Below are positions 8,592 through 49,756 of a stretch of DNA of 64,000 nucleotides, one piece after another. Location of the stretch: the NCBI GenBank assembly GCA_965231045.1, contig OZ246406.1:386208-450207 (forward strand), in the 5' to 3' direction. This DNA is from an uncultured Candidatus Saccharibacteria bacterium. GTDB taxonomy: Bacteria; Patescibacteriota; Saccharimonadia; Saccharimonadales; JAGQNJ01. Below the pieces are notes generated by a model. That model saw only the letters and a list, made by a program, of their open reading frames with translations, was not told where the DNA came from and made no database searches. Positions within the stretch are counted from its first letter, which is position 1, and every line of letters begins with the position of its first letter. Made by a program: the position numbers and the translations under genes.

Positions 8592-8595
8592 TTAA

Positions 8596-11043: not shown

Positions 11044-11067
11044 TTATTTCCCCCATCAGTTGTTAAG

Positions 11068-11096
11068 ATTATAGCATGAACGGAATGAAGCTAGAA
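11068..11096 (-). promoter_or_regulatory. Candidate extended -10 promoter (TGCTATAAT) for the NHL gene
   Basis: Minus-strand TGCTATAAT about 24 nt upstream of the GTG start, with a GGGGGA SD between them. The -35 element is weak. Confidence 0.45.
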
Positions 11097-11112
11097 CTTA
11101 TGGCCTATGTCT

Positions 11113-11361: not shown

Positions 11362-11564
11362 TCGTTATCTCCTAGAAGTTTGAACCATTTTGGCAAACTA
11401 TATAGGTATAGTATACGCCCTATTTTGACAATTTCCTAATCTCATATTATAACATATAAATCGATTCTGTCTTGGCGGTTAGTAAAGCAATTCCGGTTAT
11501 CCGCAACAATAGAACCACTTGGGCCTAGATGCTTGAAAGTTATCTAGGATTCATGGGGATTCTT

Positions 11565-12155
11565 TTACCCTACCGTGCCAGTTTTGACTTCTCCAGCTCG
11601 CTTATAGTTGGCCATGATTACGCCGCTTGGCGTTATGCTACCTTCTGTAAGCTTGAAAGCTGCTGGGATCGTGCCCTCGGCAAATAATTTTTGTCCCTGG
11701 CCAAGAGTTAACGGATAGGTTACAAGCCTAAGCTCATCGACTAAATCATTCTTAAGCAATAGTTGGTTCAACTTACCACTGCCCCAAACATGAAGGTCAG
11801 AGCCAGTTGAGGCTTTAAGCTTTTTAATATCTTCTAGGTTTTTAAGAAATACCGTATTCTTCCAGTCAGACTTTTCTACAGTATTGCTCAAAACGTATTT
11901 CATTCCGTCATTTATTCCTGGCCAAACGTCGGCATGCTCTGGCCAGTAGCTGGCAAATATCTCAAACGTCTTCCTGCCTAGCAGATACTCGGCGGGCTGC
12001 ATATTCTTTTGAAAAAAATCACTTCCATTATCATCAGCGTATGGTGCAGTCCACCCACCATATTTAAAACCACTTGAAGGATCTTCCTCTGGGCCGCCCG
12101 GAGCTTGCATTACTCCATCTAGAGTAATCATCGTTATAACAATTATCTTTCGCAT
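11565..12155 (-). CDS. Dihydrofolate reductase-family (RibD C-terminal domain) protein
   Basis: Likely start MRKIIVITMITLDGVMQAPGG. The tracked N-terminal extension to 12251 overlaps tRNA-Gly. Confidence 0.75.
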   Translation of the reverse strand: MRKIIVITMITLDGVMQAPGGPEEDPSSGFKYGGWTAPYADDNGSDFFQKNMQPAEYLLGRKTFEIFASYWPEHADVWPGINDGMKYVLSNTVEKSDWKNTVFLKNLEDIKKLKASTGSDLHVWGSGKLNQLLLKNDLVDELRLVTYPLTLGQGQKLFAEGTIPAAFKLTEGSITPSGVIMANYKRAGEVKTGTVG

Positions 12156-12206
12156 ATATTTATGATAACAAAACCAAATAAAAAACACTTCCTTAGAAGT
12201 GTATTT

Positions 12207-12283
12207 TGGTGCGGGTGAGGGGACTCTAACCCCTGGCCTCATCCTTGGCAAGGATGCGCTCTAAACAACTGAGCTACACCCGC
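12207..12283 (-). tRNA. tRNA-Gly(GCC), CCA encoded
   Basis: Acceptor GCGGGTG/CACCCGC, anticodon arm CATCC-TTGCCAA-GGATG, T arm AGGGG-TTAGAGT-CCCCT. Confidence 0.9.
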
Positions 12284-12398
12284 ATGGTATTGAGATAAAC
12301 CTACGGTTTTTCTCAACGCTCATCGGTTAAGCTGATCCTAACAAGTTAGGACAAGCTCGCTGCTCTTTTCCCTTTAAGTGGGTCCTGAACAGAGGGAA

Positions 12399-12427
12399 AT
12401 TATACCTGAGCACACTGTTTACTGCAA
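12399..12427 (-). promoter_or_regulatory. Sigma70-type promoter (TTGCAG-17-TATAAT) driving a long leader plus tRNA-Gly
   Basis: Minus strand -35 TTGCAG (12427..12422), 17-nt spacer, -10 TATAAT (12404..12399). Confidence 0.55.
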
Positions 12428-12474
12428 GCTGATAACGGTTTGCACTGACCAAATGCATATGAAAGAATGTAGAA

Positions 12475-13458
12475 GTGCCAGATTTAGAACCAGAACGATA
12501 TACCCATGGCTGGGAATTACCCAAGCGAGATATATTTTTTGAGCCAGAAGTTACTGGCTTTTTACAGGCTGATGCAGACGATGCCTGGCTAGATGAGCTT
12601 GTGACAATGAATAACTTTTATCAAGATGTCCCCGAACCAGTCATTGATTTGACAGTTATTGATCTTAGGGATCATGTTTTGGCCCAAAGATTAGCCGACG
12701 AGAAAAATGTGCAAAGGGAACCTGTACTTGTAAATGTTGCCAGCTCAAATGGTATTAACAGTAATGACCGTCCAGAAAATCCCTTCCCTAAGCCAGAGCC
12801 TTCTAGCCATCAAGCAAATGTAAATATTGCCCAGACGATGTTCGGCAGCAATGCCGTAGCACCATCTGAAGGTGAGAAACTCGCCAAAGTATTACGGCCA
12901 CGTCAGCCATGGCCGGCCGAGCTTGAAGTCGACGAAGAGCCTATTGACTTATATGAAGACCCGGACGACGAGCCTGTTTTTCCCAATGTAATTGATGAGC
13001 CGCTAGAAACAGTTGTTGAAACAATCGACACCAGTGAGCCGGCCCAAAAGCAAAGCTTTTTACGCCGAGTTCTTAATCGAATTCCACGGCGCACTCCAAA
13101 AGTTGAAAAATTGCCAAATCCGCGCCGCAGAAAGATTGGCGCAACAGTTGCCGGGGTTGCCTTAGCAGCTACAGTTATTGGTGTCGGATTTAGTGCAAAT
13201 GTCCTGCATAATCCTTTGGCGAGTAACGAACAAGCAACTCCGAGTATCTCAACCACTGTAGTGACTCATGATACATACCGATCGCCTACAACCAGCGTTG
13301 TTGCCGAAAAGCGATTTATTATGCCGATAATGACCATGGAACAGAAAACAGCGTTTGACACAATGTGTCAGTGGATCCAAGACCACCCGAATGCCACACA
13401 AGAAGAATTCAATAGAACTGTAGCTTTTGCCGAGCTTGTTGCGCAGCAAAACTCATAG
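12475..13458 (+). CDS. Hypothetical acidic/proline-rich protein with one TM helix
   Basis: 327-aa ORF with GTG start (uncertain). TM IGATVAGVALAATVIGVGF preceded by the RRRK patch; no family recognised. Confidence 0.55.
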   Translation: MPDLEPERYTHGWELPKRDIFFEPEVTGFLQADADDAWLDELVTMNNFYQDVPEPVIDLTVIDLRDHVLAQRLADEKNVQREPVLVNVASSNGINSNDRPENPFPKPEPSSHQANVNIAQTMFGSNAVAPSEGEKLAKVLRPRQPWPAELEVDEEPIDLYEDPDDEPVFPNVIDEPLETVVETIDTSEPAQKQSFLRRVLNRIPRRTPKVEKLPNPRRRKIGATVAGVALAATVIGVGFSANVLHNPLASNEQATPSISTTVVTHDTYRSPTTSVVAEKRFIMPIMTMEQKTAFDTMCQWIQDHPNATQEEFNRTVAFAELVAQQNS

Positions 13459-13483
13459 AACACAACCTCTATATATAAAGAAA

Positions 13484-13511
13484 CCGTTTTGCGAGAGGAT
13501 TCGCAAAACGG
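13484..13511. repeat. 28-nt perfect hairpin CCGTTTTGCGA-GAGGAT-TCGCAAAACGG (copy 2)
   Basis: Identical to 8008..8035. Followed on the minus strand by TTTCTTTAT. Confidence 0.9.
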
Positions 13512-13520
13512 AAGAGGAAG

Positions 13521-13577
13521 ACAAACAAAAGACCCTGCTTGATTTTGGCTACTTGTTCGCCGAAATTAAAGCAGGGT
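13521..13577 (-). terminator. Intrinsic terminator downstream of tRNA-Phe
   Basis: About 18-bp hairpin (ACCCTGCTT..GATTTTGGC / GCCGAAATT..AAGCAGGGT, one bulge), followed on the minus strand by CTTTTGTTTG. Confidence 0.7.
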
Positions 13578-13594
13578 TGGTGTTGTGTCTGACG

Positions 13595-13670
13595 TGGTGG
13601 CTCCTCCCAGACTCGAACTGGGGACACAAGGCTCTTCAGGCCTCTGCTCTACCAACTGAGCTAAAGAGCC
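13595..13670 (-). tRNA. tRNA-Phe(GAA), CCA encoded
   Basis: Acceptor GGCTCTT/AGGAGCC, anticodon arm GAGGC-CTGAAGA-GCCTT, T arm CCCAG-TTCGAGT-CTGGG. Confidence 0.9.
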
Positions 13671-13753
13671 ACGCTAGATTTAGATTATTAAGTTGTTGTC
13701 AGAAGAGCCAGTGTCCCCGGGGGACTAATATTCTCTGCTTTGCTACGCAATAA

Positions 13754-13795
13754 GCTCTTCAGGCCTCTGCTCTACCAACTGAGCTAAAGAGCCAC
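13754..13795 (-). pseudogene. Partial copy of tRNA-Phe (5' flank 2 nt plus positions 1-40)
   Basis: 42 nt identical to 13631..13672. Ends inside the 3' strand of the anticodon stem; no T arm or acceptor 3' strand follows. Confidence 0.8.
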
Positions 13796-13835
13796 AACCC
13801 CGTTATTCTACGAGAAAACAGGCATAAACTCAATA

Positions 13836-14150
13836 TTACTTCTTCTTGAAGCGATCTTTGTCCCTGGTCTCGAGCTTAGCGATAGCTTTTTGTAGGGGTT
13901 CGTCCATGTTTATATCAAAAGTATTGGCTAGGCAAAGTAGGCTGTACATAATATCAGCAATTTCATCCTCGAGCTTATCGTGAACTTCTCCTAACTTCTT
14001 TGGCTTGTCACCAAATTGGTGGTTTAAAATCCGCGAAACCTCACCAACTTCCTCAACAATACGTGCCAGCTGACTCAGTGGATGCCAATATGGCTTTTCA
14101 TACTTTTGTACACTGTCATCGATTTGTTTCTGGTAATCTTTAAGCGTCAT
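13836..14150 (-). CDS. MazG-like nucleotide pyrophosphohydrolase
   Basis: 104 aa. EEVGEVSRIL ... EDEIADIMYSLLCLANTFDINMDE pattern typical of small MazG/YpjD-type proteins. Confidence 0.8.
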   Translation of the reverse strand: MTLKDYQKQIDDSVQKYEKPYWHPLSQLARIVEEVGEVSRILNHQFGDKPKKLGEVHDKLEDEIADIMYSLLCLANTFDINMDEPLQKAIAKLETRDKDRFKKK

Positions 14151-14155
14151 GGTAG

Positions 14156-14791
14156 TTAGTTGGTGACCGCCAAGGGTTCATAAAAGAGTGTTATATCGGT
14201 TGGCCCACTGTAATTAATATCTACGGTTACTGGGCCTGGCGCAACGTGCGCCCCATCACCATACTGTGCATAGACTGTATATTTACCGGCTGGCAAGTTA
14301 AACGTATGAGAGCTACTTGCGCTTGATGAACTGGCCACAACTTGCCCGGTATTATCTTTGACGACTACGTTTGCAGAATATTCCCATTTGCAAAAACCAT
14401 TCGGGAACCCACAAGCCTGGCCACCTACATCAGTCTGAATACTAATATTGAGTACGCCTATTTCATGTGTATGGACGTTCATCGAATCGGTCTGCGTTGA
14501 GGTGCTTGTTGTGCCAGATGAACTACTTGATGCTGGAGTCGACGTTGAAACCTCAGCGCTTTTTTGCTGAGCCTGCGATGGATGACTGCGTGGTGTCGGC
14601 ATATCATTATTTGTAGCCGCGCCCAATACTTGCGCCTTTTCTTGTCTATTGTTAGCATTTGATTTTGTATACGGCTGAGCAGCAGATTGATCTTGGTGTG
14701 GTTGCTTGGCAAATACTAACCCCCCTCCAAGAACTAGCACAAAAAGGCTTAGCCCTCCAATTACACCAATTTTAAGCCAAGGTTTATTCAT
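14156..14791 (-). CDS. Membrane-anchored/secreted hypothetical protein with low-complexity linker
   Basis: N-terminal TM, Ser/Thr/Gln-rich region, beta-rich C-terminal domain of about 100 aa; no family recognised. Confidence 0.55.
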   Translation of the reverse strand: MNKPWLKIGVIGGLSLFVLVLGGGLVFAKQPHQDQSAAQPYTKSNANNRQEKAQVLGAATNNDMPTPRSHPSQAQQKSAEVSTSTPASSSSSGTTSTSTQTDSMNVHTHEIGVLNISIQTDVGGQACGFPNGFCKWEYSANVVVKDNTGQVVASSSSASSSHTFNLPAGKYTVYAQYGDGAHVAPGPVTVDINYSGPTDITLFYEPLAVTN

Positions 14792-14908
14792 CCACCTAAT
14801 TATCCTACCTGGCTAACAATTTGCAAGAGTAAGCAATATGTAAAAAACCTTGCTCCGGAAATTCTCACCCTTCCCCAGGTCGAGGATTTGAGCCAACATT
14901 CACCAATC

Positions 14909-14931
14909 AAAAAGCCCATCTTGTGATGGAC
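14909..14931 (-). terminator. Small intrinsic terminator after tRNA-Val
   Basis: Minus strand GTCCATC-ACAA-GATGGGC followed by TTTTTG. Confidence 0.5.
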
Positions 14932-14939
14932 TCATTGAT

Positions 14940-15016
14940 TGGTGGGCGCTGAGGGACTCGAACCCCCGACCCCCTCGGTGTAAACGAGATGCTCTAGCCA
15001 ACTGAGCTAAGCGCCC
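14940..15016 (-). tRNA. tRNA-Val(TAC), CCA encoded
   Basis: Acceptor GGGCGCT/AGCGCCC, anticodon arm TCTCG-TTTACAC-CGAGG, T arm GGGGG-TTCGAGT-CCCTC. Confidence 0.9.
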
Positions 15017-15066
15017 GGGTCATTTGATACCGATTGATAATACCTCTTAACAGAGGAAAAATCAAC

Positions 15067-15153
15067 TGGTGCGGACGAGAGGACTTGAACCTCCACAGGA
15101 TTGCTCCCACTACCCCCTCAAGGTAGCGCGTCTACCAATTCCGCCACGTCCGC
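15067..15153 (-). tRNA. tRNA-Leu(GAG), CCA encoded
   Basis: Acceptor GCGGACG/CGTCCGC, anticodon arm CTACC-TTGAGGG-GGTAG, long variable arm, T arm GGAGG-TTCAAGT-CCTCT. Confidence 0.9.
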
Positions 15154-15169
15154 ATAAACTAAGTTATAA

Positions 15170-15194
15170 AGGTTCAAGTCCTGGCTTGGCCACC
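15170..15194 (+). other. Orphan tRNA 3'-end-like fragment (T loop plus acceptor 3' strand)
   Basis: AGG-TTCAAGT-CCTGG-CTTGGCC-A-CC on the + strand, with no matching 5' half. Confidence 0.35.
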
Positions 15195-15273
15195 TTCGGC
15201 AGCCCCGAAACTTCATCTTTGCAAACAAGTTTGCAAGAGAAGGTTTCCTTGCGAATTGCCACTGGCTATTCTC

Positions 15274-15341
15274 ACCTCCACAGGATTGCTCCCACTACCC
15301 CCTCGAACGCAATCGCGTCTACCAATTCCGCCACGTCCGCA
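15274..15341 (-). pseudogene. Truncated, mutated copy of tRNA-Leu(GAG)
   Basis: A 28-nt block (acceptor 5' plus D arm) and a 31-nt block (anticodon 3' side to T-stem 5') are identical to the intact gene. The anticodon 5' stem is replaced (ATTGCGTTC for CTACCTT) and the T loop and 3' end are missing. Confidence 0.75.
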
Positions 15342-15387
15342 GGTATAACCATTATATCCTACAGATTACAGAGTTAAAATCAAGACT

Positions 15388-17025
15388 CTAGCTTTTTGGC
15401 AGGTGATCGTAGAGATGCTCCATGGAGTATTCTTCGCGGAGCAGTGGCTTGATGTCTTCCAGATTGACGTTAATTTTCACACCAGGATTCAGCGTGCCGT
15501 AAGGGTCAAAAATTTGTTTAATCTTGCCAAACAATTCATAGACATCATCACCATAGAGTCTTTTTAGGTATGGTGCGCGCAGTCGCCCATCACTATGTTC
15601 ACCACTAGTGCTTCCACCAAGGCTAATCACTAATGAATAGTAGTCCTCAATGATCTTGAAAACTTTCTGCCGGTCACCAACCAAACTTAGATCAAGGAAG
15701 GGCTGCATGTGCAGATTGGCATTACCAGCGTGCCCCCAAATTGCGATATTAAGGTGATATTTGTTGAAGATTTCATACACACCGTTTAGGTATTGGCTAA
15801 ACTTCTCGAGTGGAACAATACCATCCTCAATAATCGGTAGAGCTTTCATGTTGCCTTCAGTGTGCGAAATAACGGCGGCCGCACTATGTCGAATTTTCCA
15901 TAGCTTTTCCTTGGCCTCAGCTTCGGTCTCCATCTGATATTCACAATTGTGCTTTTCAAGTATTTTGATTGCTCGTTTGGACATTTTCTTGCGAGTTCGG
16001 TCGCTAACATTATCAAACTCAATCAGCACAATAAGCTTGTGGAATGGCTTATCAACTATGCCTTTGAGCTGGTTTGGATTGTGTTTGTCGATAAAGTTGA
16101 GTAGATTGTCATCGACAACTTCCAGAGCACTTGGCATCTCTGGCAAAGCCCGAAGTTCTTCAACAACTTTTTCGGCCGTATCAATGTCGTTAAACATGGC
16201 TGCGATCAAAACAGTGTCTGGATTATAGGCTTCTGTAGAAAGTGTTATTTCACTAACTATGCCTAGTGTGCCCTGTGAGCCAACAAAAAGTGGCGTTAGA
16301 TCAAAACTGCCGTCTTTGCGCTTAACATCGTAAATGTCGTAACCAGCTGAGTTCTTGGTTACATCCAAATGAATACCCTTAATAATCTCGTTATTTTCAT
16401 CAATTAGCTTGTCTAATGCTCTGTAGATTTCGCCCTCGAAACTAGACAGCCCCATCTTTTTGCTAAGTTCGCGCTTATTTAAACGACGAGTTTCAATAAC
16501 TTCCCCATTCGCCAGCACTACTCTAAGCCCCTGTACATAATCACGGGTATTACCGTACTTTATGGTTTTCTCTCCCGCGGCGTTGTTGGCTACGGCTCCG
16601 CCAAGCGTGCAAAACTCAATTGAGGAAGGGTATGGTGGCAAAAATCGGCCATGGGTGTGAAGTGTCTGCTGTAATTTTCCGTAGACTACTCCTGGTTGAA
16701 CGACCACTGTTTCCTTGCGACCATCAAGTTCCAGTAACTTATTCATATGGGCTGGTGTAACTAAAATAATTCCGCTACCAACTGCCGCCCCAGCCTGGTC
16801 ACTACCTGCACCACGAGCCGTGATCGGAATAACTCGTCCTCGCTCAGCTAGTTGCCAAGTAAACCGGGCAGTTTTACGAATGTCATTTTCGTTTTGCGGA
16901 TACACAATCATGTTTGGCATAACGGTAAAGACACCACCATCGGTCGAGAAGTATCTCCGAGCGTCATTGGAGGTCATTACCTCCCCTAATAAATGTTCCT
17001 GTAAGTAATGAGCAACTTTATTCAT
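15388..17025 (-). CDS. FAD-linked oxidase (GlcD/D-lactate dehydrogenase-like)
   Basis: 545 aa. N-terminal FAD_binding_4-like region (ITARGAGSDQAGAAVG) and C-terminal FAD-oxidase-like domain (GSTSGEHSDGRLR). Confidence 0.8.
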   Translation of the reverse strand: MNKVAHYLQEHLLGEVMTSNDARRYFSTDGGVFTVMPNMIVYPQNENDIRKTARFTWQLAERGRVIPITARGAGSDQAGAAVGSGIILVTPAHMNKLLELDGRKETVVVQPGVVYGKLQQTLHTHGRFLPPYPSSIEFCTLGGAVANNAAGEKTIKYGNTRDYVQGLRVVLANGEVIETRRLNKRELSKKMGLSSFEGEIYRALDKLIDENNEIIKGIHLDVTKNSAGYDIYDVKRKDGSFDLTPLFVGSQGTLGIVSEITLSTEAYNPDTVLIAAMFNDIDTAEKVVEELRALPEMPSALEVVDDNLLNFIDKHNPNQLKGIVDKPFHKLIVLIEFDNVSDRTRKKMSKRAIKILEKHNCEYQMETEAEAKEKLWKIRHSAAAVISHTEGNMKALPIIEDGIVPLEKFSQYLNGVYEIFNKYHLNIAIWGHAGNANLHMQPFLDLSLVGDRQKVFKIIEDYYSLVISLGGSTSGEHSDGRLRAPYLKRLYGDDVYELFGKIKQIFDPYGTLNPGVKINVNLEDIKPLLREEYSMEHLYDHLPKS

Positions 17026-17237
17026 ACACCTCTTTCATCCCATTGGTCAAAGCATAACTATCTTGTAGTTATGATAGCACAAAGATCACTGCCAATAATC
17101 AAATTCTGATTGTTTTGACAATATACATGGAATATTTAAGCCACCCTCTGTTTTATCCGGCGCAGTTTTGTAAACTCAACCTATAGTGAAAACAGATAGT
17201 CACGTGATATACTTTTAACAATAAAAAGGAAACAAAA

Positions 17238-18071
17238 ATGAATCCAAATAATAATGATCCAACCAGTACTCAGCCGGGTAGCGTATCGCCCAACACGCCT
17301 ACACAAATTCAGCAGCCACAAATCACACCACAACAACCTCAACCTACTCAGCCAGTTCAGCCCGTTCAACCTGTTGTCCCTCCTTCTCAACAAGCACCTG
17401 CTTTTGGATCACAACCTAAAAGGCACACAGCTCTTAAAGTTATTCTTATTGTTGTTGGCGTTATCATAGGGTTGTTCATCTTACTTGCCATACTTGGAGC
17501 ATTTCTTGATAAATCGGGTAATAGCTCAAGTACGGGCACTAATAAGCCAAACAACTCTAAAGCTAGCGCGTTTAGCAACTCAGAACTTTCGGACTTAAAA
17601 GCATTTGGTGACCAAGTGTTGCAGCCTATTAAGACTGGAGATTATGGTACCGCGTATGCCAATGCCTCAGACGTATTTAAGAAGGCCGTCCCACGGGGTT
17701 CAGCAAATTACAATCAAGCCTTTGGTGCTCTAAAGTTATTTCTCGTCAGCTCTGACACTGGTCAGCCAATGAAGTTGGTATATATTGGCAAGGCAAGCAC
17801 TGATAGCGATAGTGGTAAAAATGAATACAGTATACTCTATCTGATACCCGGAAAGTCGTATACGAATCCCAGTGGTCAGACTACATCTGGAGATAGTTAT
17901 ATCTCGGTTCTAGTAACTGCCGACAGAAAACACTTTGACTCAGTTCTACCAATGGCCACAGCTGACACTGCAAAAGCCGCCGCCGACCAAATGGTTGCCC
18001 CACTGGAAGCTGCTTTTAAGGTAAATTACCCGTCAGTGGCACCACGAACTACCCTTGAAGCCCAAAACTAA
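17238..18071 (+). CDS. Hypothetical bitopic membrane protein with Pro/Gln-rich N-terminus
   Basis: AAGGA SD upstream. PQ-rich cytoplasmic head, TM (ALKVILIVVGVIIGLFILLAILGAF), extracytoplasmic domain of about 170 aa. Confidence 0.55.
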   Translation: MNPNNNDPTSTQPGSVSPNTPTQIQQPQITPQQPQPTQPVQPVQPVVPPSQQAPAFGSQPKRHTALKVILIVVGVIIGLFILLAILGAFLDKSGNSSSTGTNKPNNSKASAFSNSELSDLKAFGDQVLQPIKTGDYGTAYANASDVFKKAVPRGSANYNQAFGALKLFLVSSDTGQPMKLVYIGKASTDSDSGKNEYSILYLIPGKSYTNPSGQTTSGDSYISVLVTADRKHFDSVLPMATADTAKAAADQMVAPLEAAFKVNYPSVAPRTTLEAQN

Positions 18072-18081
18072 GCAGTAAGTC

Positions 18082-18783
18082 TCACCTAATCTGGTGAATA
18101 AACTCGTTACAAAGGTTGATGAAGTTATCAAGTTGTTGTGTGCTGTTAAGTTCTCCAGGGTAATAAAAACTAACAAAGTTATTATTAAACTGTATAGCAA
18201 TATCTTGATAGCCATCAATAAGTCGCGCCATCTCATTCGGTGGAAAAAGTTCAAAAATTGTTTGATCTTGCTGCTTGGTATATATAGTAAACTTGCTTGC
18301 GAACTCAGTACCTTCTAATGAAAATCTGTCTTTTGCATTAAACGGGCTAGGTACAATCTCATATTTATTAAAGTAATTCGTCAATAACAATAAGTTTGGC
18401 AGCTGTCTTGAGGCTTGCAGCTCATATACAGTCAAACTTATCGGATAATTAATAAACTGAGTCGGGTCCGCCTTGTCTTGTACTTGTGCAATGAAGTTTA
18501 AATTAAAGAGCGAGGCTGTTGAGTTGTTGACTGGAATTGTAACTAAATTGGTGGCATTTTGTACCACACTAATTGTGTGGACAGTCCCCTTAATTTGGCG
18601 CTTATCCATTACGGGAGAGAAACCATACTGGTGGGTTGAGGCATAACCTTGCAACACACTCGTTGTTTGTGAGGTGGGCTTCATTTTATTTTTGTAGTAT
18701 TTTATTAGGAATATGATGCCTATAATAGCCGGGCCAAAAACTATAGTAATAGCGGTTATAGCAAAAAGAATAACAAAGATCAT
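18082..18783 (-). CDS. Hypothetical membrane protein (N-terminal TM)
   Basis: Likely start MIFVILFAITA at 18783, overlapping the stop of an upstream 36-codon ORF (TAATG). The tracked ORF extends to 18822 (TTG). Confidence 0.55.
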   Translation of the reverse strand: MIFVILFAITAITIVFGPAIIGIIFLIKYYKNKMKPTSQTTSVLQGYASTHQYGFSPVMDKRQIKGTVHTISVVQNATNLVTIPVNNSTASLFNLNFIAQVQDKADPTQFINYPISLTVYELQASRQLPNLLLLTNYFNKYEIVPSPFNAKDRFSLEGTEFASKFTIYTKQQDQTIFELFPPNEMARLIDGYQDIAIQFNNNFVSFYYPGELNSTQQLDNFINLCNEFIHQIR

Positions 18784-18893
18784 TACTTTTTCATGCCTTT
18801 TAGGCCCCACATTATCAGCCAAACACCAAAACCTATGGCTCCAAGGATAATAAGCGCCATTATGATAAAAATACTGATATTTACAATTGCCAT
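18783..18893 (-). CDS. Candidate 36-aa hydrophobic mini-protein
   Basis: ATG..TAA ORF MAIVNISIFIIMALIILGAIGFGVWLIMWGLKGMKK, below the track cutoff. Single TM; stop overlaps the next start. Confidence 0.35.
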   Translation of the reverse strand: MAIVNISIFIIMALIILGAIGFGVWLIMWGLKGMKK

Positions 18894-18998
18894 GTTGAAA
18901 CTATACTAAAATTCTTGTGCTATAAAAAGGATTATGAGTAGATATAACGGACTCACCTTTTAACTATTACGCAAAAAAGATACAATTATCCTTGATAT

Positions 18999-19085
18999 GG
19001 GGATGTGGCGGAATTGGTAGACGCGCTACGTTCAGGACGTAGTGAGCTTTTGCTCGTGGAGGTTCAAGTCCTCTCATCCCCACCA
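18999..19085 (+). tRNA. tRNA-Leu(CAG), CCA encoded
   Basis: Acceptor GGGGATG/CATCCCC, anticodon arm CTACG-TTCAGGA-CGTAG, long variable arm, T arm GGAGG-TTCAAGT-CCTCT. Confidence 0.9.
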
Positions 19086-41120: not shown

Positions 41121-41534
41121 CTAAAGTATCTCAGAATGTAGGTAATCTTCCAAAATCTGTCTAGCTGCCACCATATCAATGTCTTCTTTTTTGTACGGTT
41201 TCTTACCCTGTTTTAACTCCTGCTCAGCTATCACAGAAGTCACAGCTTCATCTTGAAATACATAGTCTATTTTAAGCTTGTCTTGAAAGGTTTTACTGAA
41301 CTCTCTAACATAAGTCGTCTGAGCTGTTTCCTGACCCTCTAGCCCTCTTGGCAGTCCAATCACAACTGTATCTACATGATTTTCCTCAATCAGTTCTTTG
41401 AGCTTATCAAATAGGTCTTCATCGTTGATAAGAGTAGTTAGTGGAGACGCCATACGGGCAATACTATTGGCCAAAGCTACTCCAATTCTGCGTTGTCCCA
41501 CATCTAGAGCCAAGATGTATTTGGGTTCAGCCAT
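41121..41534 (-). CDS. ruvX: Holliday junction resolvase-like RuvX (YqgF)
   Basis: ILALDVGQRRIGVALAN N-terminus, 137 aa. Confidence 0.9.
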   Translation of the reverse strand: MAEPKYILALDVGQRRIGVALANSIARMASPLTTLINDEDLFDKLKELIEENHVDTVVIGLPRGLEGQETAQTTYVREFSKTFQDKLKIDYVFQDEAVTSVIAEQELKQGKKPYKKEDIDMVAARQILEDYLHSEIL

Positions 41535-43216
41535 TAATTCGCCTTTTGTAGCACTATGGTGATTTTACTGGTTTTCTTTGGAGTTTTACTAACCCAGAAC
41601 GGGCTATAGCTAACTTCGACATCTTTAACACCAGGGATTTCTTTAATAGTATTCTCTGTATCACCCTTCTTCTTGCCGGCTATATCATTCTTAAGCTGAT
41701 TTTCATCTATCTTAGGGCCAACTGCCAATTGAGTACTAATGGTTAGGGATGTATCGCCATTGCCCTCAGTTTTGACGACTTTATATTTAGCATCTTTAAA
41801 GCCGTAATCTTGAATCTGCTGTTTATTACTGTCGATTTCAGAACTCATTGACTTATCAATAACCTTCTTAAGATCATCTTCCTTTACGCCAATCATCTGA
41901 TAGGTGCCCTTGCTAGTCACCGTAACTTGTGAACCTTCTTGATCAACATCCGGGCTAACCGTAACGGCAGCATCTTTGAGCGTAAAGGTATCTGTCAAGG
42001 CCAGGTAACCTTGGTCTTCTAGATTTTTCTTGAGTTGTTGTTTGGCTGCCTCGTCGGTATTTGATAGTTTAGCCTTAGCAGCATCGACATCAGATTGTGA
42101 GACAACTGTGACGACTTTGCTCGTCCCCCCACTTGCGCTCCCAGTTGCAGACACATCACTTCGTCCAGCAACTGCAAAAGTCGCCGACCCGACATTTGAG
42201 CCTTCTCCGGAGTTTTGAGCAGTTATACCAACTGAACCTGACTTAAAGTTGATACATCCACCAGATATGCTTTCGAAGCTAAAACTAGCTGCCGAGCTGG
42301 TCGTAAAGCCAATGTTATTCACAGTTAAGACTGTCCCTGCGGGCACACTTGCAGGTGTACTGAGTCCTGTGCAATTCTTGGCAGTCATCGTAACCGTTCC
42401 GGATGCTTTACTACCGACGTCTTTCTTGCCGGTAGCCGGGGCAGATTGGCTATCAGATTTAGGTGATTGGGCAACTTTGGATGGAACTACTGAGTTACTT
42501 TCGTCAACACTTTGAGCACTTGCACTAGCCGTAAAGTTTACTTGGGTGTCTTTGCTTGATGTGTCAGTTTTAATCGTTACTTTGGCCTTTGGTAAAACAA
42601 AAAAGGCAAATATACATAAGACTATCAGGGCAATAATTCCGCCACCGATTAAGAAAAGCCGCTTGCGGAACTGGTCAAAATTAGGAATTTTATTCTTTTT
42701 GTCCTTCTTATTTTTGGCTTTTTTGGCTTTGCCCGCGGCTACGCCTGCTCCTGCAGCATCTTCAACTGGTGCATCGTTATCAACTTCGATAGTCTCTTCG
42801 GGCTGTTGAGTTGTACTCTTGGTCGCTAACTCACCAACAGTTTGTGTCGCATCAATCTCGCCAGTTTCAGCTTCTGAACTTTCTGGCACATCTTCAGCGG
42901 GCTCATCCGCTGGCACAGTTTCATCAGGTGGCTGAGGAACTTCTGGCTTGGTTTGGAGATTTTTAGCAACGTATACACCTGCGGCTCCAGCCAGAGGCAT
43001 GAGCCCAGCTTCAGAAGTAATCAAAACTAGATTCTTATCAGCATTGTCAGCTGCCCGCTTTAAGAGTTTCATATTTACAACACTTTGCAATACAGTCGCC
43101 CTTTTAGGCAAAACCAAGGCTACAATTTTGGAATTACTGGCCTGAACTTTATCAATGATGGCGGTTATTTCGTCATCAATGTCTATATAAATTGTGTCCT
43201 TTTCTGCAGAACTCAT
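41534..43216 (-). CDS. Bitopic membrane protein, unknown function
   Basis: Cytoplasmic head of about 95 aa, acidic/Pro linker, KKxK patch plus TM (LFLIGGGIIALIVLCIFAFFVL), Ser/Thr-rich ectodomain of about 350 aa. Stop overlaps the ruvX start. Confidence 0.6.
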   Translation of the reverse strand: MSSAEKDTIYIDIDDEITAIIDKVQASNSKIVALVLPKRATVLQSVVNMKLLKRAADNADKNLVLITSEAGLMPLAGAAGVYVAKNLQTKPEVPQPPDETVPADEPAEDVPESSEAETGEIDATQTVGELATKSTTQQPEETIEVDNDAPVEDAAGAGVAAGKAKKAKNKKDKKNKIPNFDQFRKRLFLIGGGIIALIVLCIFAFFVLPKAKVTIKTDTSSKDTQVNFTASASAQSVDESNSVVPSKVAQSPKSDSQSAPATGKKDVGSKASGTVTMTAKNCTGLSTPASVPAGTVLTVNNIGFTTSSAASFSFESISGGCINFKSGSVGITAQNSGEGSNVGSATFAVAGRSDVSATGSASGGTSKVVTVVSQSDVDAAKAKLSNTDEAAKQQLKKNLEDQGYLALTDTFTLKDAAVTVSPDVDQEGSQVTVTSKGTYQMIGVKEDDLKKVIDKSMSSEIDSNKQQIQDYGFKDAKYKVVKTEGNGDTSLTISTQLAVGPKIDENQLKNDIAGKKKGDTENTIKEIPGVKDVEVSYSPFWVSKTPKKTSKITIVLQKAN

Positions 43217-44715: not shown

Positions 44716-45099
44716 TTACTTTAAGGTTGTGCGAGGTTTTGGTATGAAGGGGCGAAGCGGCATTCGAGTTTCAACTATCCCCAACATTGCTCGATCCGTT
44801 AGATCGGCAGATGTAATCGCTATGTGTCCCATAACTATGGCTTCGCCAAGTGCAATATCTACCTCGTTGTCTTTAGCATATAGATTTAAGCTCTCAGGCA
44901 AGATGCTATTACGTACCAAACTAGCAATAGCACCAAATTCCCGGCGATCCCAAATAACTTCAAGAGAAAACCGACCTAGATCGTTTGGTTTTCCAGTACC
45001 AAAATACTCACCAGACAAATATTGCCTCATATCAGTAGGCTTAAGCGCGTATTCACTGACGCAAACTTCATCAAAATGTTCACCAAAAGTTCTTGGCAT
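44716..45099 (-). CDS. Hypothetical protein (127 aa)
   Basis: ORF with GAGGAAA SD-like sequence upstream; no family recognised. Confidence 0.5.
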   Translation of the reverse strand: MPRTFGEHFDEVCVSEYALKPTDMRQYLSGEYFGTGKPNDLGRFSLEVIWDRREFGAIASLVRNSILPESLNLYAKDNEVDIALGEAIVMGHIAITSADLTDRAMLGIVETRMPLRPFIPKPRTTLK

Positions 45100-45307: not shown

Positions 45308-47287
45308 CTACTTGAGTACAGCCTTTATTCTACGTATTCCAGCGCTAGATGCTTCTTCTTTGACAATATGGAAGCGCTTGCCATCTTCGGCGAGTTGGCC
45401 GGTACGATCAACATGTGGCCCCCCACAAATTTCATAACTAAATGGCTTGTCGTCTTTTTTGCCTTGCATACGGTAGATTTTGATCACGTCACCATAGCGA
45501 TCACCAAAATGTCCCAGTGGTTTGAGTTTCTCCAGAGCGTATTTCTTAGGGTGCTCTTCAAATGTTACTGTCAGATCTTTATCGATCTGTTCGTTGACCA
45601 TATCTTCAACTTTTTGGAGTTGCTCAGCTGTAACCTTTTCTGGATGGCTAAAATCAAAACGTAGACGTTCTTCGGTAATATTTGAGCCGTGTTGAACGAC
45701 ATGATCGCCCAATGTTCGGCGCAAACTTTCATACATCAAATGCGTAGCGGTGTGGTACTTCTTGTGAATATCTTTTTGGCCGCCCAAACCGCCCTTGAAA
45801 GTTCCTTTGCTGGCAGTTTGCGAACGAGTTCTCTGTTCAATCATTTCGAAATCAAAATCTTTTTTCCAGTTCTTATCGATACTGATGTTTTGTATGGCTG
45901 CTTCTTCTAGACTGAGCTCTGGTGGAAAGCCAAAAGTATCGTATAGCTTGAATATATCTTTTCCCGTAAGCAGCGGCCCTTGCTCCATGGTGTAAAACTC
46001 TTTTGAAGAAGACGTTACCTTGGCAGCTTCCATTTTTTCTGAAACTTGGCCATCTTTTTTCCACCCAAGCTTATCTAGTTTATTAAATTCTCGGAGTCCC
46101 TTTCGTAGTGTTTGGCGGAAGGTTTTTTCTTCTTTAACTAGTGTTTCGATAATCTCAGCCTTGTTTTTTTCGACTTCTGGAAAGTCTTTTTCATATAGTT
46201 CGGCAATAACCGGCACTACATCCTGCAAGAAATTCTGCTCAATACCCAGGTCAAAGGCGAAGCGAATAGCCCGTCGAAGTAGTCGGCGCATCACGTAACC
46301 TTGCTCTTTGTTGCTTGGTTTTACACCATCAACGGCTAGGAAAGTTGCCCCGCGTAAGTGATCAGCAATTACCCGCATGCTGTTGGTGTGGCTCTCATAA
46401 GTTTTGCCACTTAGTTTTTCTAAGCTTTCGATAATTGGCCAAAGTACACTGATCTTAAAAACATCCGGGCTATCAATAGCTGCCGCCGCAATTCGTTCCA
46501 AACCGCCGCCAAAATCGATATTTGGCTTTTCCAACTCTTCGAAGCCTTTGTCGGTTCGACGATATTGCATGAATACTTGATTACCGATTTCCATAAATCG
46601 CCCCGAGTCACTTGCAGGATGAGGCTTACCATAACCTTCGGCATGATTCTGTTCACCAAAATCATAAAATACTTCACTATCCGGGCCACAGGGATCGCCT
46701 ATAGGAGTTTTATTGAGTCCACCACCACGACTCCACCAGTTCTCACCATCATCATAAAAGAAAATTCGCTCGCCAGGCTTTATCCCCCGCTTATCACCAT
46801 CGGCTTGAGAGCCAATCTCTACAATCTTGGCATCAATACCCTTTTTCTTGAATTGTTCTTGCCAAATTTTGGCCGCTTCATCATCACGTGGGATGCCGTG
46901 TGACTTATCACCAATAAAACAACTGACATAAAGTTTGTTTGGATCAAGTCCAACTATCTCTGTTAAATATTCAAAAAACCAGGCAATTTGTTCTTTTTTG
47001 AAGTAGTCACCCATGCTCCAGTTACCAAGCATTTCGAAGAAAGTCGTGTGGCGATTATCGCCAACGTCTTCGATATCCATGGCTCGAATACAGGTTTGGC
47101 TATCTGCCAGTCGAATACCGTCAGGGTGTTTTTCGCCAAGTAAGTAGCGAATTAATGGCTGCATACCACTACCTGTAAACAAGGTAGTTGGATCGTTATC
47201 GGGCACCAAAAGAGCACGCGGGATAATTACGTGGTCGCGTTTTTTGAAGAATTCTAAATAAGCATTGCGAATATCTTGTGCATTCAT
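45308..47287 (-). CDS. alaS: Alanine--tRNA ligase (short form, no C-Ala domain)
   Basis: 659 aa. Class II catalytic core, editing-domain H..H / CGG.H motifs (HTATHLM, ICGGPHV). Ends just after GIRRIKAV. Confidence 0.95.
   Translation of the reverse strand: MNAQDIRNAYLEFFKKRDHVIIPRALLVPDNDPTTLFTGSGMQPLIRYLLGEKHPDGIRLADSQTCIRAMDIEDVGDNRHTTFFEMLGNWSMGDYFKKEQIAWFFEYLTEIVGLDPNKLYVSCFIGDKSHGIPRDDEAAKIWQEQFKKKGIDAKIVEIGSQADGDKRGIKPGERIFFYDDGENWWSRGGGLNKTPIGDPCGPDSEVFYDFGEQNHAEGYGKPHPASDSGRFMEIGNQVFMQYRRTDKGFEELEKPNIDFGGGLERIAAAAIDSPDVFKISVLWPIIESLEKLSGKTYESHTNSMRVIADHLRGATFLAVDGVKPSNKEQGYVMRRLLRRAIRFAFDLGIEQNFLQDVVPVIAELYEKDFPEVEKNKAEIIETLVKEEKTFRQTLRKGLREFNKLDKLGWKKDGQVSEKMEAAKVTSSSKEFYTMEQGPLLTGKDIFKLYDTFGFPPELSLEEAAIQNISIDKNWKKDFDFEMIEQRTRSQTASKGTFKGGLGGQKDIHKKYHTATHLMYESLRRTLGDHVVQHGSNITEERLRFDFSHPEKVTAEQLQKVEDMVNEQIDKDLTVTFEEHPKKYALEKLKPLGHFGDRYGDVIKIYRMQGKKDDKPFSYEICGGPHVDRTGQLAEDGKRFHIVKEEASSAGIRRIKAVLK
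45336..45362. repeat. Direct repeat copy B (inside alaS 3' coding end)
   Basis: 27 nt identical to 45177..45203. Confidence 0.85.
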
Positions 47288-47330
47288 ATCTGTTACATTC
47301 TACCAGAATATTGTATTATTTATAGCTTTC

Positions 47331-47359
47331 TTGCAGACGCTATTGCAGCTATGTACAAT
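47331..47359 (+). promoter_or_regulatory. Promoter TTGCAG-17-TACAAT
   Basis: -35 at 47331..47336, -10 at 47354..47359, pointing into the riboswitch-like leader. Confidence 0.55.
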
Positions 47360-47377
47360 GAACTTATTAACAATTCA

Positions 47378-47478
47378 AAAATATAAAGAGTGCGGGGAGA
47401 GATCTAGCTTGTTGATCCGCCGGCAACCTAGCGAAAGCTAAGGTGCTCCATCTAGCCCATTGTTGGGAAAGATATTGG
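47378..47478 (+). promoter_or_regulatory. Candidate SAM-I-class riboswitch aptamer
   Basis: J1/2 AAGAG; P2 GCGG..CCGC with GGAGA/UUGAU k-turn-like bulges; P3 GGCAACC/GGUGCU capped by UAGC-GAAA-GCUA; CUAG/CUAG pseudoknot option; P4 CCCA-UUGU-UGGG; J4/1 AAA; P1 AAUAU/AUAUU. Confidence 0.6.
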
Positions 47479-47487
47479 TGTGGAATC

Positions 47488-47524
47488 ATCCTTTCTCGGC
47501 AAATTGTAGAAAGGATTTTTTATT
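47488..47524 (+). terminator. Intrinsic terminator (riboswitch expression platform)
   Basis: ATCCTTTCT-cggcaaattgt-AGAAAGGAT followed by TTTTTTATTT. The 5' arm can pair instead with aptamer GGGAAAGAT (47465..47473). Confidence 0.75.
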
Positions 47525-47526
47525 TC

Positions 47527-48003
47527 ATGTCTCTGACCACTGAGCGTCAACCACGTTTACCCTACCCTGAACACCAACCTGGATTTGGCTTTGTTGATCT
47601 TGTATCGCTAATAGTAGAACGTAGTTTTAGCCCCGAACTTCTAAAGAAAAGCGATATTTCTTTTCCTGACGTGGCAGTAACTCTAGGCACATGTGTGATT
47701 GGGCAAGAAGTTCGAACAACTCGCATAGGCGCCGTCGACTCGATTGGTGAAGGTACTGTTATTGAGGTCGGAGCACATATTGGACGAAATGTTAGTATTG
47801 GTAGCAATAGTGTGCTTGGTGCGGGTGTTATCCTGGAACACGAGTCAACAGCTTGCAATCAGGTGATCATGGAAGAAGGCTCTGCCCTACGAATTGGCGC
47901 TGTTGCTAATGATCGAGCTCATCTTGGTGAGCGTTCGGAATTAAGTTACGACGCGGTACTTGATGCAGGCGATAAACTATTACCGGGTGAGATCAGATAC
48001 TAG
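47527..48003 (+). CDS. Left-handed beta-helix (hexapeptide-repeat) protein, unknown function
   Basis: Start MSLTTERQ just after the terminator U-tract. Imperfect [LIV]-G-x4 hexads (IGAVDSIGEGTVIEVGAHIGRNVSIGSNSVLGAGVIL). The tracked N-terminal extension covers the leader RNA. Confidence 0.6.
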   Translation: MSLTTERQPRLPYPEHQPGFGFVDLVSLIVERSFSPELLKKSDISFPDVAVTLGTCVIGQEVRTTRIGAVDSIGEGTVIEVGAHIGRNVSIGSNSVLGAGVILEHESTACNQVIMEEGSALRIGAVANDRAHLGERSELSYDAVLDAGDKLLPGEIRY

Positions 48004-49057
48004 AGATTATCCCACCACCTAAACATATATCTTTGTCATAAAAAACAGCTGATTGACCAGAAGTGACAGCTCGGATCGGTTGACTAAGCTTAACTTGTAA
48101 AGCTTTTCCGTTATGTTTAATTTCAGCTTCCACAAGTGGGGCACGATAACGAGTACGAACACTTAACTTGCTAAGTTTAGGTTCTTCATTTATCCAGTGT
48201 ACGTCTGTTAATTTTAGCTCATCGCTCCACAGGTTTTCATCATCCAAATTGGTGCTAACATATACTTCGTTCTTTTTCATATCCTTGCCAATTACGTAGT
48301 AAGGCAGTCCCCCTCCCACGTCTAAACCGTGCCTCTGTCCAATAGTGTAGAAAATCGCACCTTCGTGCTGACCGATTATTTTCCCGTTTTCATCAATAAT
48401 ATTGCCTGGTTTCGTCTTAACATAATTGCCTAAGAAATCTTTGATGCCTACTTTGCCAACAAAACAAATTCCCTGACTATCTTTCTTATCCGCAGTCACG
48501 AGTCCAAGTTTTTTAGCCATGGCCCGAACTTCGGCTTTAGTCTTAAAATCACCGATTGGCATTAAGCTTTTTTTGAGTGCATCCTCTGTTACACGATACA
48601 AAAAGTACGTCTGATCTTTATCGGTATTTTTGGCCGTCAATAATTTACCATCTTTTATGCGAGCATAGTGTCCGGTCGCAATCATGTCGGCGCCGTCTTC
48701 AAGGGCAGTTTGCAAAAACAACTTAAACTTAACTTCTTGATTACACATAATATCAGGGTTTGGCGTTCGGCCGGCATTGTACTCTTCAATCATGTAATCA
48801 ACGACTTTGTGGCGATATTCTTTCTCAAAATCATACATTTTAAACGGAATCCCCAGTTGTACTGCCACGCGCTTTGCATCCTGATAATCTTCTTTCCATG
48901 GACAATGATGCCCTGGCAAATCTTGGCTCCAGTTTTTCATATACACGCCCGTGACGTCATAGCCATGCTGCTTTAGCAGTGCTGCAGTGACGGAGCTATC
49001 AACTCCACCAGACAATCCAACGTAGACTTTTTTCGCCATAGTCGGATATTGTAGCAT
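47993..49057 (-). CDS. mnmA: tRNA-specific 2-thiouridylase MnmA
   Basis: PP-loop VYVGLSGGVDSSV. Start MLQYPTMAKK preceded by GAGGTG. The tracked 92-aa N-terminal extension is antisense to the HD gene. Confidence 0.9.
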   Translation of the reverse strand: MLQYPTMAKKVYVGLSGGVDSSVTAALLKQHGYDVTGVYMKNWSQDLPGHHCPWKEDYQDAKRVAVQLGIPFKMYDFEKEYRHKVVDYMIEEYNAGRTPNPDIMCNQEVKFKLFLQTALEDGADMIATGHYARIKDGKLLTAKNTDKDQTYFLYRVTEDALKKSLMPIGDFKTKAEVRAMAKKLGLVTADKKDSQGICFVGKVGIKDFLGNYVKTKPGNIIDENGKIIGQHEGAIFYTIGQRHGLDVGGGLPYYVIGKDMKKNEVYVSTNLDDENLWSDELKLTDVHWINEEPKLSKLSVRTRYRAPLVEAEIKHNGKALQVKLSQPIRAVTSGQSAVFYDKDICLGGGIISSI

Positions 49058-49096
49058 TTTCACCTCTGTTTTTCCAGTGTCTGTTATGATGGACTC

Positions 49097-49756
49097 ATGA
49101 GTGATCTTCAAGCTATCCAGAAAACAGCGGATTACGTTAGGGAGAAATTTAGTGGTGAGGGCACCGGCCACGACTGGTGGCACATGTATCGTGTATGGCA
49201 AACAGCCAAAACTATCGCCAAGAAAGAAGGTGGTGACCTGCTTGTTGTTGAACTTGGAGCATTGCTTCATGATATTGATGATTGGAAATTTAATAACGGT
49301 GACAGTAGTAAAGGTGCGATGGTAGCTAGACAATGGCTCGAGAGTTTAAATGTTAAATCAGAAGTTATTGATGAAGTATCGTTTATTGTTGAACATATCT
49401 CGTTTAAGGGTGGAACAAACCAAACGCCAATGCGTACTTTAGAGGGAAAAATTGTCCAAGATGCCGATAGATTGGATGCACTTGGAGCAATTGGGATCGC
49501 CCGAACATTTGCCTATGGAGGGTCTGCGGGTCGAGAAATATACAATCCAAATGTTGCGCCAAAAGAGTATCAATCGTTAACCGAGTTTAAGAATCAAATC
49601 AAAGATAACCACACCATTAATCATTTTTACGAAAAATTGTTGTTACTTAAAGACAAAATGAATACCAAGACAGGCAAGTCTATGGCGATGCAAAGACATA
49701 AATATATGGAAGCTTATCTCAAAGAATTCTACGCCGAGTGGGACGGTAAAATCTAA
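49097..49756 (+). CDS. HD-domain phosphohydrolase
   Basis: HDWWHMYRV .. LHDIDDWK .. DADRLDALGAIG motifs. Confidence 0.8.
   Translation: MSDLQAIQKTADYVREKFSGEGTGHDWWHMYRVWQTAKTIAKKEGGDLLVVELGALLHDIDDWKFNNGDSSKGAMVARQWLESLNVKSEVIDEVSFIVEHISFKGGTNQTPMRTLEGKIVQDADRLDALGAIGIARTFAYGGSAGREIYNPNVAPKEYQSLTEFKNQIKDNHTINHFYEKLLLLKDKMNTKTGKSMAMQRHKYMEAYLKEFYAEWDGKI

Follow-up and report, generated by a model that had tools for sequence, protein, structure and literature searches.

A predicted SAM-I riboswitch in front of a rare left-handed beta-helix protein gene of Candidatus Saccharibacteria

Why should a small hexapeptide-repeat protein gene, with no recognised link to methionine, lie behind an RNA that resembles a sensor of S-adenosylmethionine (SAM)? 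This question is raised by a stretch of 64,000 nucleotides (nt) of contig OZ246406.1 (positions 386,208 to 450,207; assembly GCA_965231045.1) from an uncultured Candidatus Saccharibacteria bacterium, which is called the window here and according to which all positions are numbered. Saccharibacteria are ultra-small epibionts with a drastically reduced metabolism and few characterised regulators. An original prediction, made from the sequence without database searches, had proposed a SAM-I-class riboswitch upstream of the gene. We conclude that 47354-47526 (+) is very probably the promoter and leader of a canonical SAM-I riboswitch, which serves as an OFF switch on the gene at 47527-48003 (+), encoding a left-handed beta-helix (LbH; hexapeptide-repeat) protein of 158 amino acids (aa).

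The whole window (64 kb, both strands) was scanned by cmscan against Rfam 15 at gathering thresholds, and the output consisted of seven tRNAs and one riboswitch, the latter a match to RF00162 (SAM-I/S-box) at 47378-47478 (+). This match has 49.6 bits against a gathering threshold of 44.4 and an E-value of 2.3e-8, and it spans model positions 1-108 of 108, i.e., the full length. In a permissive rescan of 47250-47650, RF00162 was the top family of clan CL00012 and other matches were noise (E about 2); since it is the clan's best family, lower-scoring overlapping matches to other CL00012 families were omitted. A covariance-model search had been proposed with the original prediction as a check, and its result, significant and above the curated Rfam threshold, agrees with what had been read from the letters.

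The SAM-I landmarks that had been listed in that reading are all present, in order and in place. The aptamer has helices P1-P4, with a k-turn-type P2 and the GGCAACC/GGUGC core in P3, and is composed on the + strand of J1/2 AAGAG (47386-47390), P2 GCGG with CCGC (47392-47395 with 47417-47420), P3 GGCAACC(U) with (A)AGGUGCU (47422-47429 with 47440-47447) capped by AGC-GAAA-GCU, a pseudoknot option CUAG/CUAG between the P2 loop and J3/4 (47404-47407 with 47452-47455), P4 CCCA with UGGG (47456-47459 with 47464-47467), and a short A-U P1 (47380-47384 with 47472-47476). SAM-contacting residues have been assigned in established SAM-I structures. In the RF00162 alignment, the consensus contact and junction positions are all kept (J1/2 AAGAG, GGCAACC/GGUGC, GAAAGAUA, and the P1 A-U/U-A pairs); these nucleotides, including the P1 pairs beside J4/1 GAAAGAU, are aligned with high posterior probability and are invariant in orthologs, and the J4/1-P1 segment reads GAAAGAUAU in the consensus alignment. 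Non-canonical aptamer positions are limited to the outer end of P1, which is effectively five A-U pairs. The k-turn motif GGAGA/UGAU in P2 and the CUAG/CUAG pseudoknot complementarity are present and invariant in nine of nine leaders, without covariation. The gene 3' of the aptamer lies outside the metabolism or transport of methionine, cysteine and SAM, which is the typical context of SAM-I and not a structural criterion. Judged by its sequence, the RNA is a genuine and ordinary SAM-I riboswitch, a regular member of the class; its short A-U P1 and a terminator arm bearing a Shine-Dalgarno (SD) sequence are phylum-wide traits and not signs of a new class.

Comparison of homologous loci supports this structure. 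The contigs of ten distinct LbH family members were examined for upstream RF00162 matches, and a match of 41.0-57.1 bits was found directly 5' of the LbH gene in 14 loci, corresponding to 10 distinct members. Among the distinct loci with enough upstream DNA, 10 of 10 have the match, nine of them above the gathering threshold and one, L014, under it at 41.0 bits (L013, with just 124 nt of upstream sequence, is outside this count). Protein identity of the members preceded by SAM-I ranges from 97% down to about 30%. Presence of the leader in front of orthologs had also been named as a check on the original prediction, and the leader is found upstream of every testable ortholog and distant homolog, with structure-preserving double substitutions.

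For nine non-identical leaders, pairing in the SAM-I structure plus terminator was compared with a control in which partners were slid by 1-3 columns, and with 500 shuffles. Paired cells amount to 96.4% in the proposed structure vs 40-49% in the slid ones, and the nine pairs with changes on both sides were reached by 0 of 500 shuffles. By helix, double changes were found at one pair of P1, two pairs of P2 and four pairs of P3, with P4 invariant; the terminator stem is also conserved, its basal pairs showing G-U and compensatory changes. RNAalifold has independently recovered P2, P3, P4 and the terminator. Between the window and L001, the leader is identical at 182 of 187 nt (about 97%), and the coding sequence differs at 96 of 477 nt (about 80% identical).

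A hairpin that may serve both as terminator and for SD sequestration follows the aptamer at 47488-47525 (+). Its arms AUCCUUUCU (47488-47496) and AGAAAGGAU (47508-47516) are followed by TTTTTTATTT; there is a U-tract at 47516-47521, plus UUU at 47523-47525, the leader stretch 3' of the hairpin being UUUUUUAUUU, and the ATG is at 47527. The 9-bp terminator that had been proposed is recovered by folding with both arms present, and has -10.4 kcal/mol when folded alone. The accompanying statement that the gene has no SD does not hold, for AAAGGA (47510-47515, +) lies within the terminator 3' arm. This sequence is 11 nt from the ATG in the window and 6-7 nt in most orthologous leaders and in leaders of metK (SAM synthetase) of the phylum, which read GAAAGGAT(A)TTTTT-ATG; because of this spacing in most orthologs, we regard it as the SD sequence.

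The alternative structure is an antiterminator at 47460-47502 (+), in which the P4 3' strand and J4/1 (UUGUUGGGAAAG, 47460-47471) pair with the terminator 5' arm and loop (CUUUCUCGGCAA, 47491-47502). It is the minimum free energy structure of nascent RNA 47455-47505 (12 bp, -15.1 kcal/mol) and is mutually exclusive with both P4/P1 and the terminator. In nascent-RNA folds the antiterminator forms in eight of nine homologous leaders, while the full-leader fold contains P2, P3, P4 and the terminator. The OFF logic of the original prediction is therefore reproduced by folding in the window and in eight of nine homologs, with a changed register: the pairing of GGGAAAGAU with AUCCUUUCU that had been suggested has a mismatch, and the best register is UUGUUGGGAAAG/CUUUCUCGGCAA, with 12 bp and about -15 kcal/mol.

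The following mechanism is proposed. At high SAM, the ligand would bind the four-way-junction aptamer and lock P1 (47380-47384 with 47472-47476) and P4, so that AUCCUUUCU (47488-47496) would be left free to pair with AGAAAGGAU (47508-47516). The hairpin together with the U-tract would cause transcription termination, and it would also hide the ribosome-binding site in read-through RNA, since its 3' arm contains the SD-like AAAGGA. At low SAM, the P4-3'/J4-1 segment 47460-47471 would pair with 47491-47502, by which the terminator would be blocked, the SD exposed and the LbH protein made. The OFF direction is suggested by family membership and the metK context, and the LbH protein would belong to the Saccharibacteria SAM regulon together with metK and Cys/Met enzymes, being induced when SAM is low.

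Upstream of the aptamer, the -10 hexamer TACAAT (47354-47359, +) is invariant in all aligned orthologous leaders, and the form TAnAAT is found in most Saccharibacteria SAM-I leaders. The promoter had been given as TTGCAG-17-TACAAT, and both boxes exist with the 17-nt spacer; the conserved -10 box supports the proposal, and the -35-like TTGCAG (47331-47336, +) is weak, with three of six matches, and is not conserved in orthologs. TACAAT is the putative promoter element of the leader. A 5'-leader motif, TTAACAA (47367-47373, +), lies between the -10 box and P1 and is conserved in related leaders. Of 80 Saccharibacteria SAM-I leaders, 60 have the motif TTAACAA(Y)TTR immediately before the aptamer, metK leaders among them, regardless of the downstream gene. 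A pairing partner for it was sought in the leaders and none was found; P1 extension and pairing with the terminator loop were rejected as roles, the 3' flanks and loops being without conservation. The motif may mark the transcription start or the initial transcribed region, or may be bound by a protein.

Several points weigh against the proposed switch. The score exceeds the gathering threshold by only 5 bits, and P1 has only 4-5 A-U pairs. The terminator is modest (9 bp with three G-C pairs, -10.4 kcal/mol) and is not listed by a simple terminator scan; with such a hairpin, control could be mainly translational. Moreover, the antiterminator pairing has no covariation support, because its sequences are nearly invariant. 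The list of the simple promoter/terminator scan lacks the promoter because its -35 box has three of six matches, and lacks the terminator because its loop has 11 nt; these misses reflect how the scan works and do not speak against the promoter or the terminator.

The nature of the ligand is indicated by the genes that stand behind the same aptamer elsewhere in the phylum. Using the lineage-specific 3' half of the aptamer as a search pattern, matches were obtained in 92 GTDB species representatives, nearly all of those listed being Candidatus Saccharibacteria or Saccharimonadales. In 62 of the 80 aptamer loci with a readable downstream open reading frame (ORF), this frame is metK; other downstream genes encode Cys/Met pyridoxal-phosphate (PLP) enzymes, homocysteine S-methyltransferase, a phosphoadenosine-phosphosulfate (PAPS)-reductase-like protein, LuxR-type proteins and several products without assignment, and a gene of the LbH family follows the aptamer in three of the 92 loci (L033, L048 and L100). 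The layout common to these leaders is TAnAAT, TTAACAA, the aptamer, and ATCCTTTC...GAAAGGAT(A)TTTTT-ATG, and on this comparison the LbH leader can be regarded as a standard Saccharibacteria SAM-I leader. As aptamers of this type stand mostly in front of metK and Cys/Met enzymes in the phylum, the ligand is almost certainly SAM, binding being predicted from family membership and the metK context.

Further genes without a known methionine link were observed behind SAM-I aptamers: LuxR/GerE-type proteins of about 185-196 aa at L015 and L039, and the products at L019 (194 aa), L020 (101 aa) and L090 (over 250 aa), several of which have no Pfam match at all. Such LuxR-type and Pfam-less genes are probably additional members of the phylum's SAM regulon. 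In addition, SAM-I-controlled proteins of at least 280 aa at L045, L051, L056 and L064 have no Pfam match at E <= 1e-3 and share the motif VTRWFDTNTFYRQP. This resembles KWFDTNYHY, a motif of the cobalamin-independent methionine synthase MetE, and the family may be a divergent MetE-like enzyme.

The frame 47527-48003 is a real coding gene, because its divergence is biased to the third codon position, it matches Pfam Hexapep, and a confident LbH model is obtained. At the first, second and third codon positions, 26/13/57 differences were counted relative to L001 and 66/42/103 relative to L003. Hexapep is matched with 35.6 bits (cut-off 27), and by 14 of the 15 family members; weak additional Pfam matches of the protein are LbH_EIF2B and GMPPB_C. 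Using AlphaFold2 with the 15-sequence family alignment, the best model has a pLDDT (predicted local distance difference test) of 88, the other four models having 52-63, and consists of an N-terminal helix (residues 22-40) and an uninterrupted LbH (50-158) of strict six-residue periodicity.

The family is small and rare, and its named members are Saccharibacteria metagenome-assembled genomes (MAGs). A word-indexed search of 5.8 billion proteins gave three relatives, at 97, 78 and 50% identity, and phmmer against 1.84 billion cluster representatives gave a handful more, of 150-190 aa and about 30-50% identity, which match the query in its N-terminal, non-repeat part as well. Matches of phmmer in this N-terminal part to the giant proteins P0014 and P0019 were rejected as spurious (repeated MBG domains, pairwise E 0.015). 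A profile search of the 5.8 billion proteins was flooded by generic LbH proteins and added only P0054; the separation is sharp, with 173-203 bits for family members vs at most 89 for generic LbH proteins. Scanning GTDB genomes with the close-ortholog protein alignment (A2) gave 74 pattern matches, none of which was confirmed, and scanning JGI metagenomes with alignment A6 gave 259, likewise with none confirmed; from the latter result we regard the family, with its about 15 clusters, as rare. Two public gene calls, P0005 (189 aa; L007 3375-3944) and P0008 (165 aa; L010 4001-4498), start inside or at the SAM-I aptamer/terminator, and their N-termini have probably been extended too far. As no obvious ATG follows the U-tract in the L010 leader, a non-canonical start is possible there.

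The description "orphan hexapeptide-repeat protein" was apt, since Hexapep was the only Pfam assignment, no curated subfamily was reached, and the word search of 5.8 billion proteins gave three relatives. No accessory domain (SATase_N, LpxD N-terminal or NeuD N-terminal) was found in the Pfam scan of the protein and its family. PADLOC gave no match to the protein, and PHROGs gave an unannotated generic LbH family only. The PDB sequence-profile search found LpxD, LpxA and small sugar N-acetyltransferases via the repeats only, and Foldseek against PDB found only generic LbH matches (E >= 3e-4; template-modelling (TM) score <= 0.55), by which no functional assignment is backed. Residues L53, E138, Y141 and P153 are invariant in the family, and histidine is invariant at no column of alignment A3, H84 being Q in P0003 and varying elsewhere. 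Between genomes (L003, L007, L010 and L014) the protein is 30-50% identical, with the flanking AlaRS/MnmA 65-84% identical. This fast divergence contrasts with the nearly invariant riboswitch leader.

Other explanations of the leader deserve weighing beside a SAM-sensing OFF switch. Chance resemblance to SAM-I, without regulatory function, has the modest margin over the gathering threshold in its favour and nothing else; it is refuted by the comparative data, and with an E-value of 2.3e-8 in the window, independent matches in 14 homologous loci, covariation, and a leader conserved far above the adjacent coding sequence, its probability is negligible. A SAM-I scaffold whose ligand specificity has shifted, e.g., to S-adenosylhomocysteine or another adenosyl compound, would explain a non-methionine gene, and the lack of a recognised methionine link, the unusually short P1 and a score just above gathering are consistent with it. 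We consider this very unlikely, however, with every consensus ligand-contact position kept and with the same variant, short P1 and platform preceding metK, the signature context of SAM sensing, in 62 Saccharibacteria loci. Somewhat less remote, though still improbable, is that the real output is antisense or convergent transcription: at low SAM, read-through from the riboswitch promoter would cross the LbH ORF, reach the 3' end of the convergent mnmA (tRNA 2-thiouridine synthase; 47993-49039, -) and lower mnmA expression, and the LbH ORF would be secondary. The 3' ends of the two genes overlap by 11 nt (47993-48003), no terminator-like site was found after the LbH gene by a simple scan, in most family loci the two genes likewise converge and abut, and there is a precedent, S-box-controlled antisense RNAs being known in Clostridium acetobutylicum (ubiG-mccBA operon). 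Yet purifying selection acts on the LbH ORF, its product has a confident fold model, L048 keeps the riboswitch and LbH unit without mnmA downstream, several loci have a gap and not an overlap between the two genes, and abutting convergent genes are ordinary in compact genomes.

With the SAM-I switch retained as the reading of the leader, the function of the LbH protein itself can be approached in three ways. An atypical minimal acyl/acetyl-transferase or acyl-CoA-binding protein in sulfur-amino-acid/SAM supply is our preferred candidate, though a tentative one with less than even odds; it would fit the regulon, because this holds sulfhydrylase-type enzymes and a PAPS-reductase-like gene. Several findings count against it: the model has neither the insertion loops nor the C-terminal extension from which the active site of an acyltransferase is usually built, none of the curated NCBIfam LbH subfamilies was reached (the best was LpxD, with 34 bits against a cut-off of 207), H105, the sole histidine on a conserved patch, is kept by 11 of 15 members and replaced by N, T or F in the others, and the protein evolves much faster than its neighbours. 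A shade more doubtful is a Saccharibacteria-specific component of SAM/methionine homeostasis, either a minimal O-acetyltransferase replacing MetX/CysE or a non-enzymatic factor that re-tunes SAM use. The former could act upstream of the sulfhydrylases under SAM-I control, and the latter could act on, e.g., MetK or tRNA modification in an epibiont short of host-derived methionine. To a non-catalytic beta-helix, i.e., a scaffold or regulator comparable to eIF2B-epsilon, dynactin p25/p27 or CcmM/N-type proteins, which would modulate another protein under SAM shortage, we give about as much weight as to the acyl/acetyl-transferase, again less than even, and a smaller remainder falls to other functions. 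In Pfam, the matches ranking next to Hexapep are LbH domains of a non-catalytic kind (LbH_EIF2B for 14 of 15 members, DCTN5 for two), the helix is bare, regular and free of insertion loops, neither histidine nor aspartate is found among the invariant residues L53, E138, Y141 and P153, and divergence is fast. On the other side, most stand-alone LbH proteins of bacteria are acyltransferases or gamma-carbonic-anhydrase-like, a conserved polar patch placed by the hexapeptide register (E104/H105, R122 and E138/Y141/D142 on one face) is a putative catalytic or ligand site, and the gene context points to no interaction partner.

The LbH gene is monocistronic and usually lies between a divergent alaS (AlaRS at 45308-47287 in the window) and a convergent, abutting mnmA. 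The latter was identified by the NCBIfam MnmA equivalog (442 bits) and is probably context and not part of the switch. The window had been described as devoid of sulfur-amino-acid genes; it is not wholly sulfur-free, given this convergent tRNA 2-thiouridylase. Since orthologs have 348 aa, the true mnmA start is placed at about 49039, and the 446-aa ORF (47993-49333), which begins with TTG, is about 98 codons too long. The surplus part corresponds to the antisense frame of a divergent HD-domain phosphohydrolase gene (49097-49756, +), which accounts for its apparent tblastn conservation. In L048, a 196-aa gene without assignment and LysRS lie downstream of the LbH gene in place of mnmA. In L014 (GCA_964629815.1), a class-V aminotransferase of the cysteine-desulfurase-like type (5541-6686) was observed directly after mnmA; cysteine desulfurase is the usual sulfur donor for MnmA, and sulfur-relay genes thus adjoin the SAM-controlled LbH gene there.

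Elsewhere the window encodes a short AlaRS, FtsA/PilM-like genes and an F-ATPase, a set in keeping with the Saccharibacteria lineage to which the aptamer matches in GTDB also point. Seven tRNA genes lie within about 12 kb (7471-19082), six on the - strand and one on the + strand, two or three of them with long variable arms; no rRNA was found in the 64-kb window. A 560-aa ORF (41534-43216, -) and a 127-aa ORF (44716-45099, -) have no Pfam or NCBIfam match. Their position, beside RuvX-like and FtsA-like genes, is kept in L001 (556 aa and 127 aa), and they are presumably lineage-specific proteins.

We take the yitJ and metI leaders of Bacillus subtilis and the metF aptamer of Thermoanaerobacter tengcongensis (PDB 2GIS) as the SAM-I reference systems. 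The window element shares with RF00162 the four-way junction P1-P4 with its k-turn-type P2, the GGCAACC/GGUGC core in P3, J1/2 AAGAG, J4/1 GAAAGAU and the P2-loop/J3-4 pseudoknot complementarity, as well as the classical S-box arrangement of a terminator/antiterminator OFF platform whose antiterminator is drawn from the aptamer 3' side. It differs from the references in its short P1, made of 4-5 A-U pairs only, and in its short P3 and P4; its terminator 3' arm doubles as SD and would combine transcriptional with translational control, its host belongs to Patescibacteria, and the regulated gene is none of the known Met/Cys/SAM genes. In design it is essentially the same as the Saccharibacteria metK SAM-I leaders in GTDB MAGs, with TAnAAT, TTAACAA, the same variant of the aptamer, GGUGCUCCAUCUAGCCC...GGGRAAGAUAU, and the ATCCTTTC...GAAAGGAT(A)TTTTT-ATG platform, whereas the downstream gene belongs to a 150-190-aa LbH family and not to SAM synthetase.

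The protein shares hexapeptide repeats and the predicted LbH fold with acyltransferases such as CysE, LpxA/LpxD, PglD/NeuD-type proteins and DapH. Unlike these, it matches only the generic repeat region, far under every curated subfamily cut-off, has no accessory domains, insertion loop or C-terminal tail, and the histidine of its patch is not invariant. Gamma-carbonic-anhydrase-like LbH proteins (YrdA/PaaY/CaiE) are of similar size and give the best structural superpositions; for E. coli YrdA (3tio), the TM score is 0.5-0.55 with a root-mean-square deviation of 1.9-3.9 A over about 120 residues and a Foldseek E of about 1e-3 to 1e-4. As histidine is invariant at no column, the three Zn-binding histidines of that group are not conserved, and the window family has an N-terminal helix in contrast to the typical C-terminal helix of the group.

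Full-text searches of the searchable literature found no report linking natural SAM riboswitches to Saccharibacteria, and the riboswitches mentioned in the Patescibacteria papers checked are synthetic, theophylline or engineered inducible tools. New are the regulated LbH family and, apparently, the documentation of natural SAM riboswitches in Saccharibacteria. Patescibacteria workers report a lack of ligand-responsive expression tools (PMC11665869). The compact native leader described here could serve as such a tool. The present comparison documents a uniform SAM-I design across the phylum, in which a terminator and SD sequestration are combined, and outlines the phylum's SAM regulon, comprising metK, Cys/Met PLP enzymes, homocysteine methyltransferase, and PAPS-reductase-like, LuxR-type and other genes without assignment.

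A riboswitch is a dependable guide to what its gene does: where a gene has stayed under a SAM sensor over deep divergence, the cell almost certainly needs it at times of SAM shortage. The rare and fast-evolving beta-helix protein is a concrete candidate, open to test, for a function still missing from the methionine/SAM economy. Saccharibacteria are a phylum thought to be without amino-acid biosynthesis, and if a role of this protein in SAM/methionine homeostasis is true, its strict coupling to SAM-I would give a handle on a new metabolic step in the phylum.

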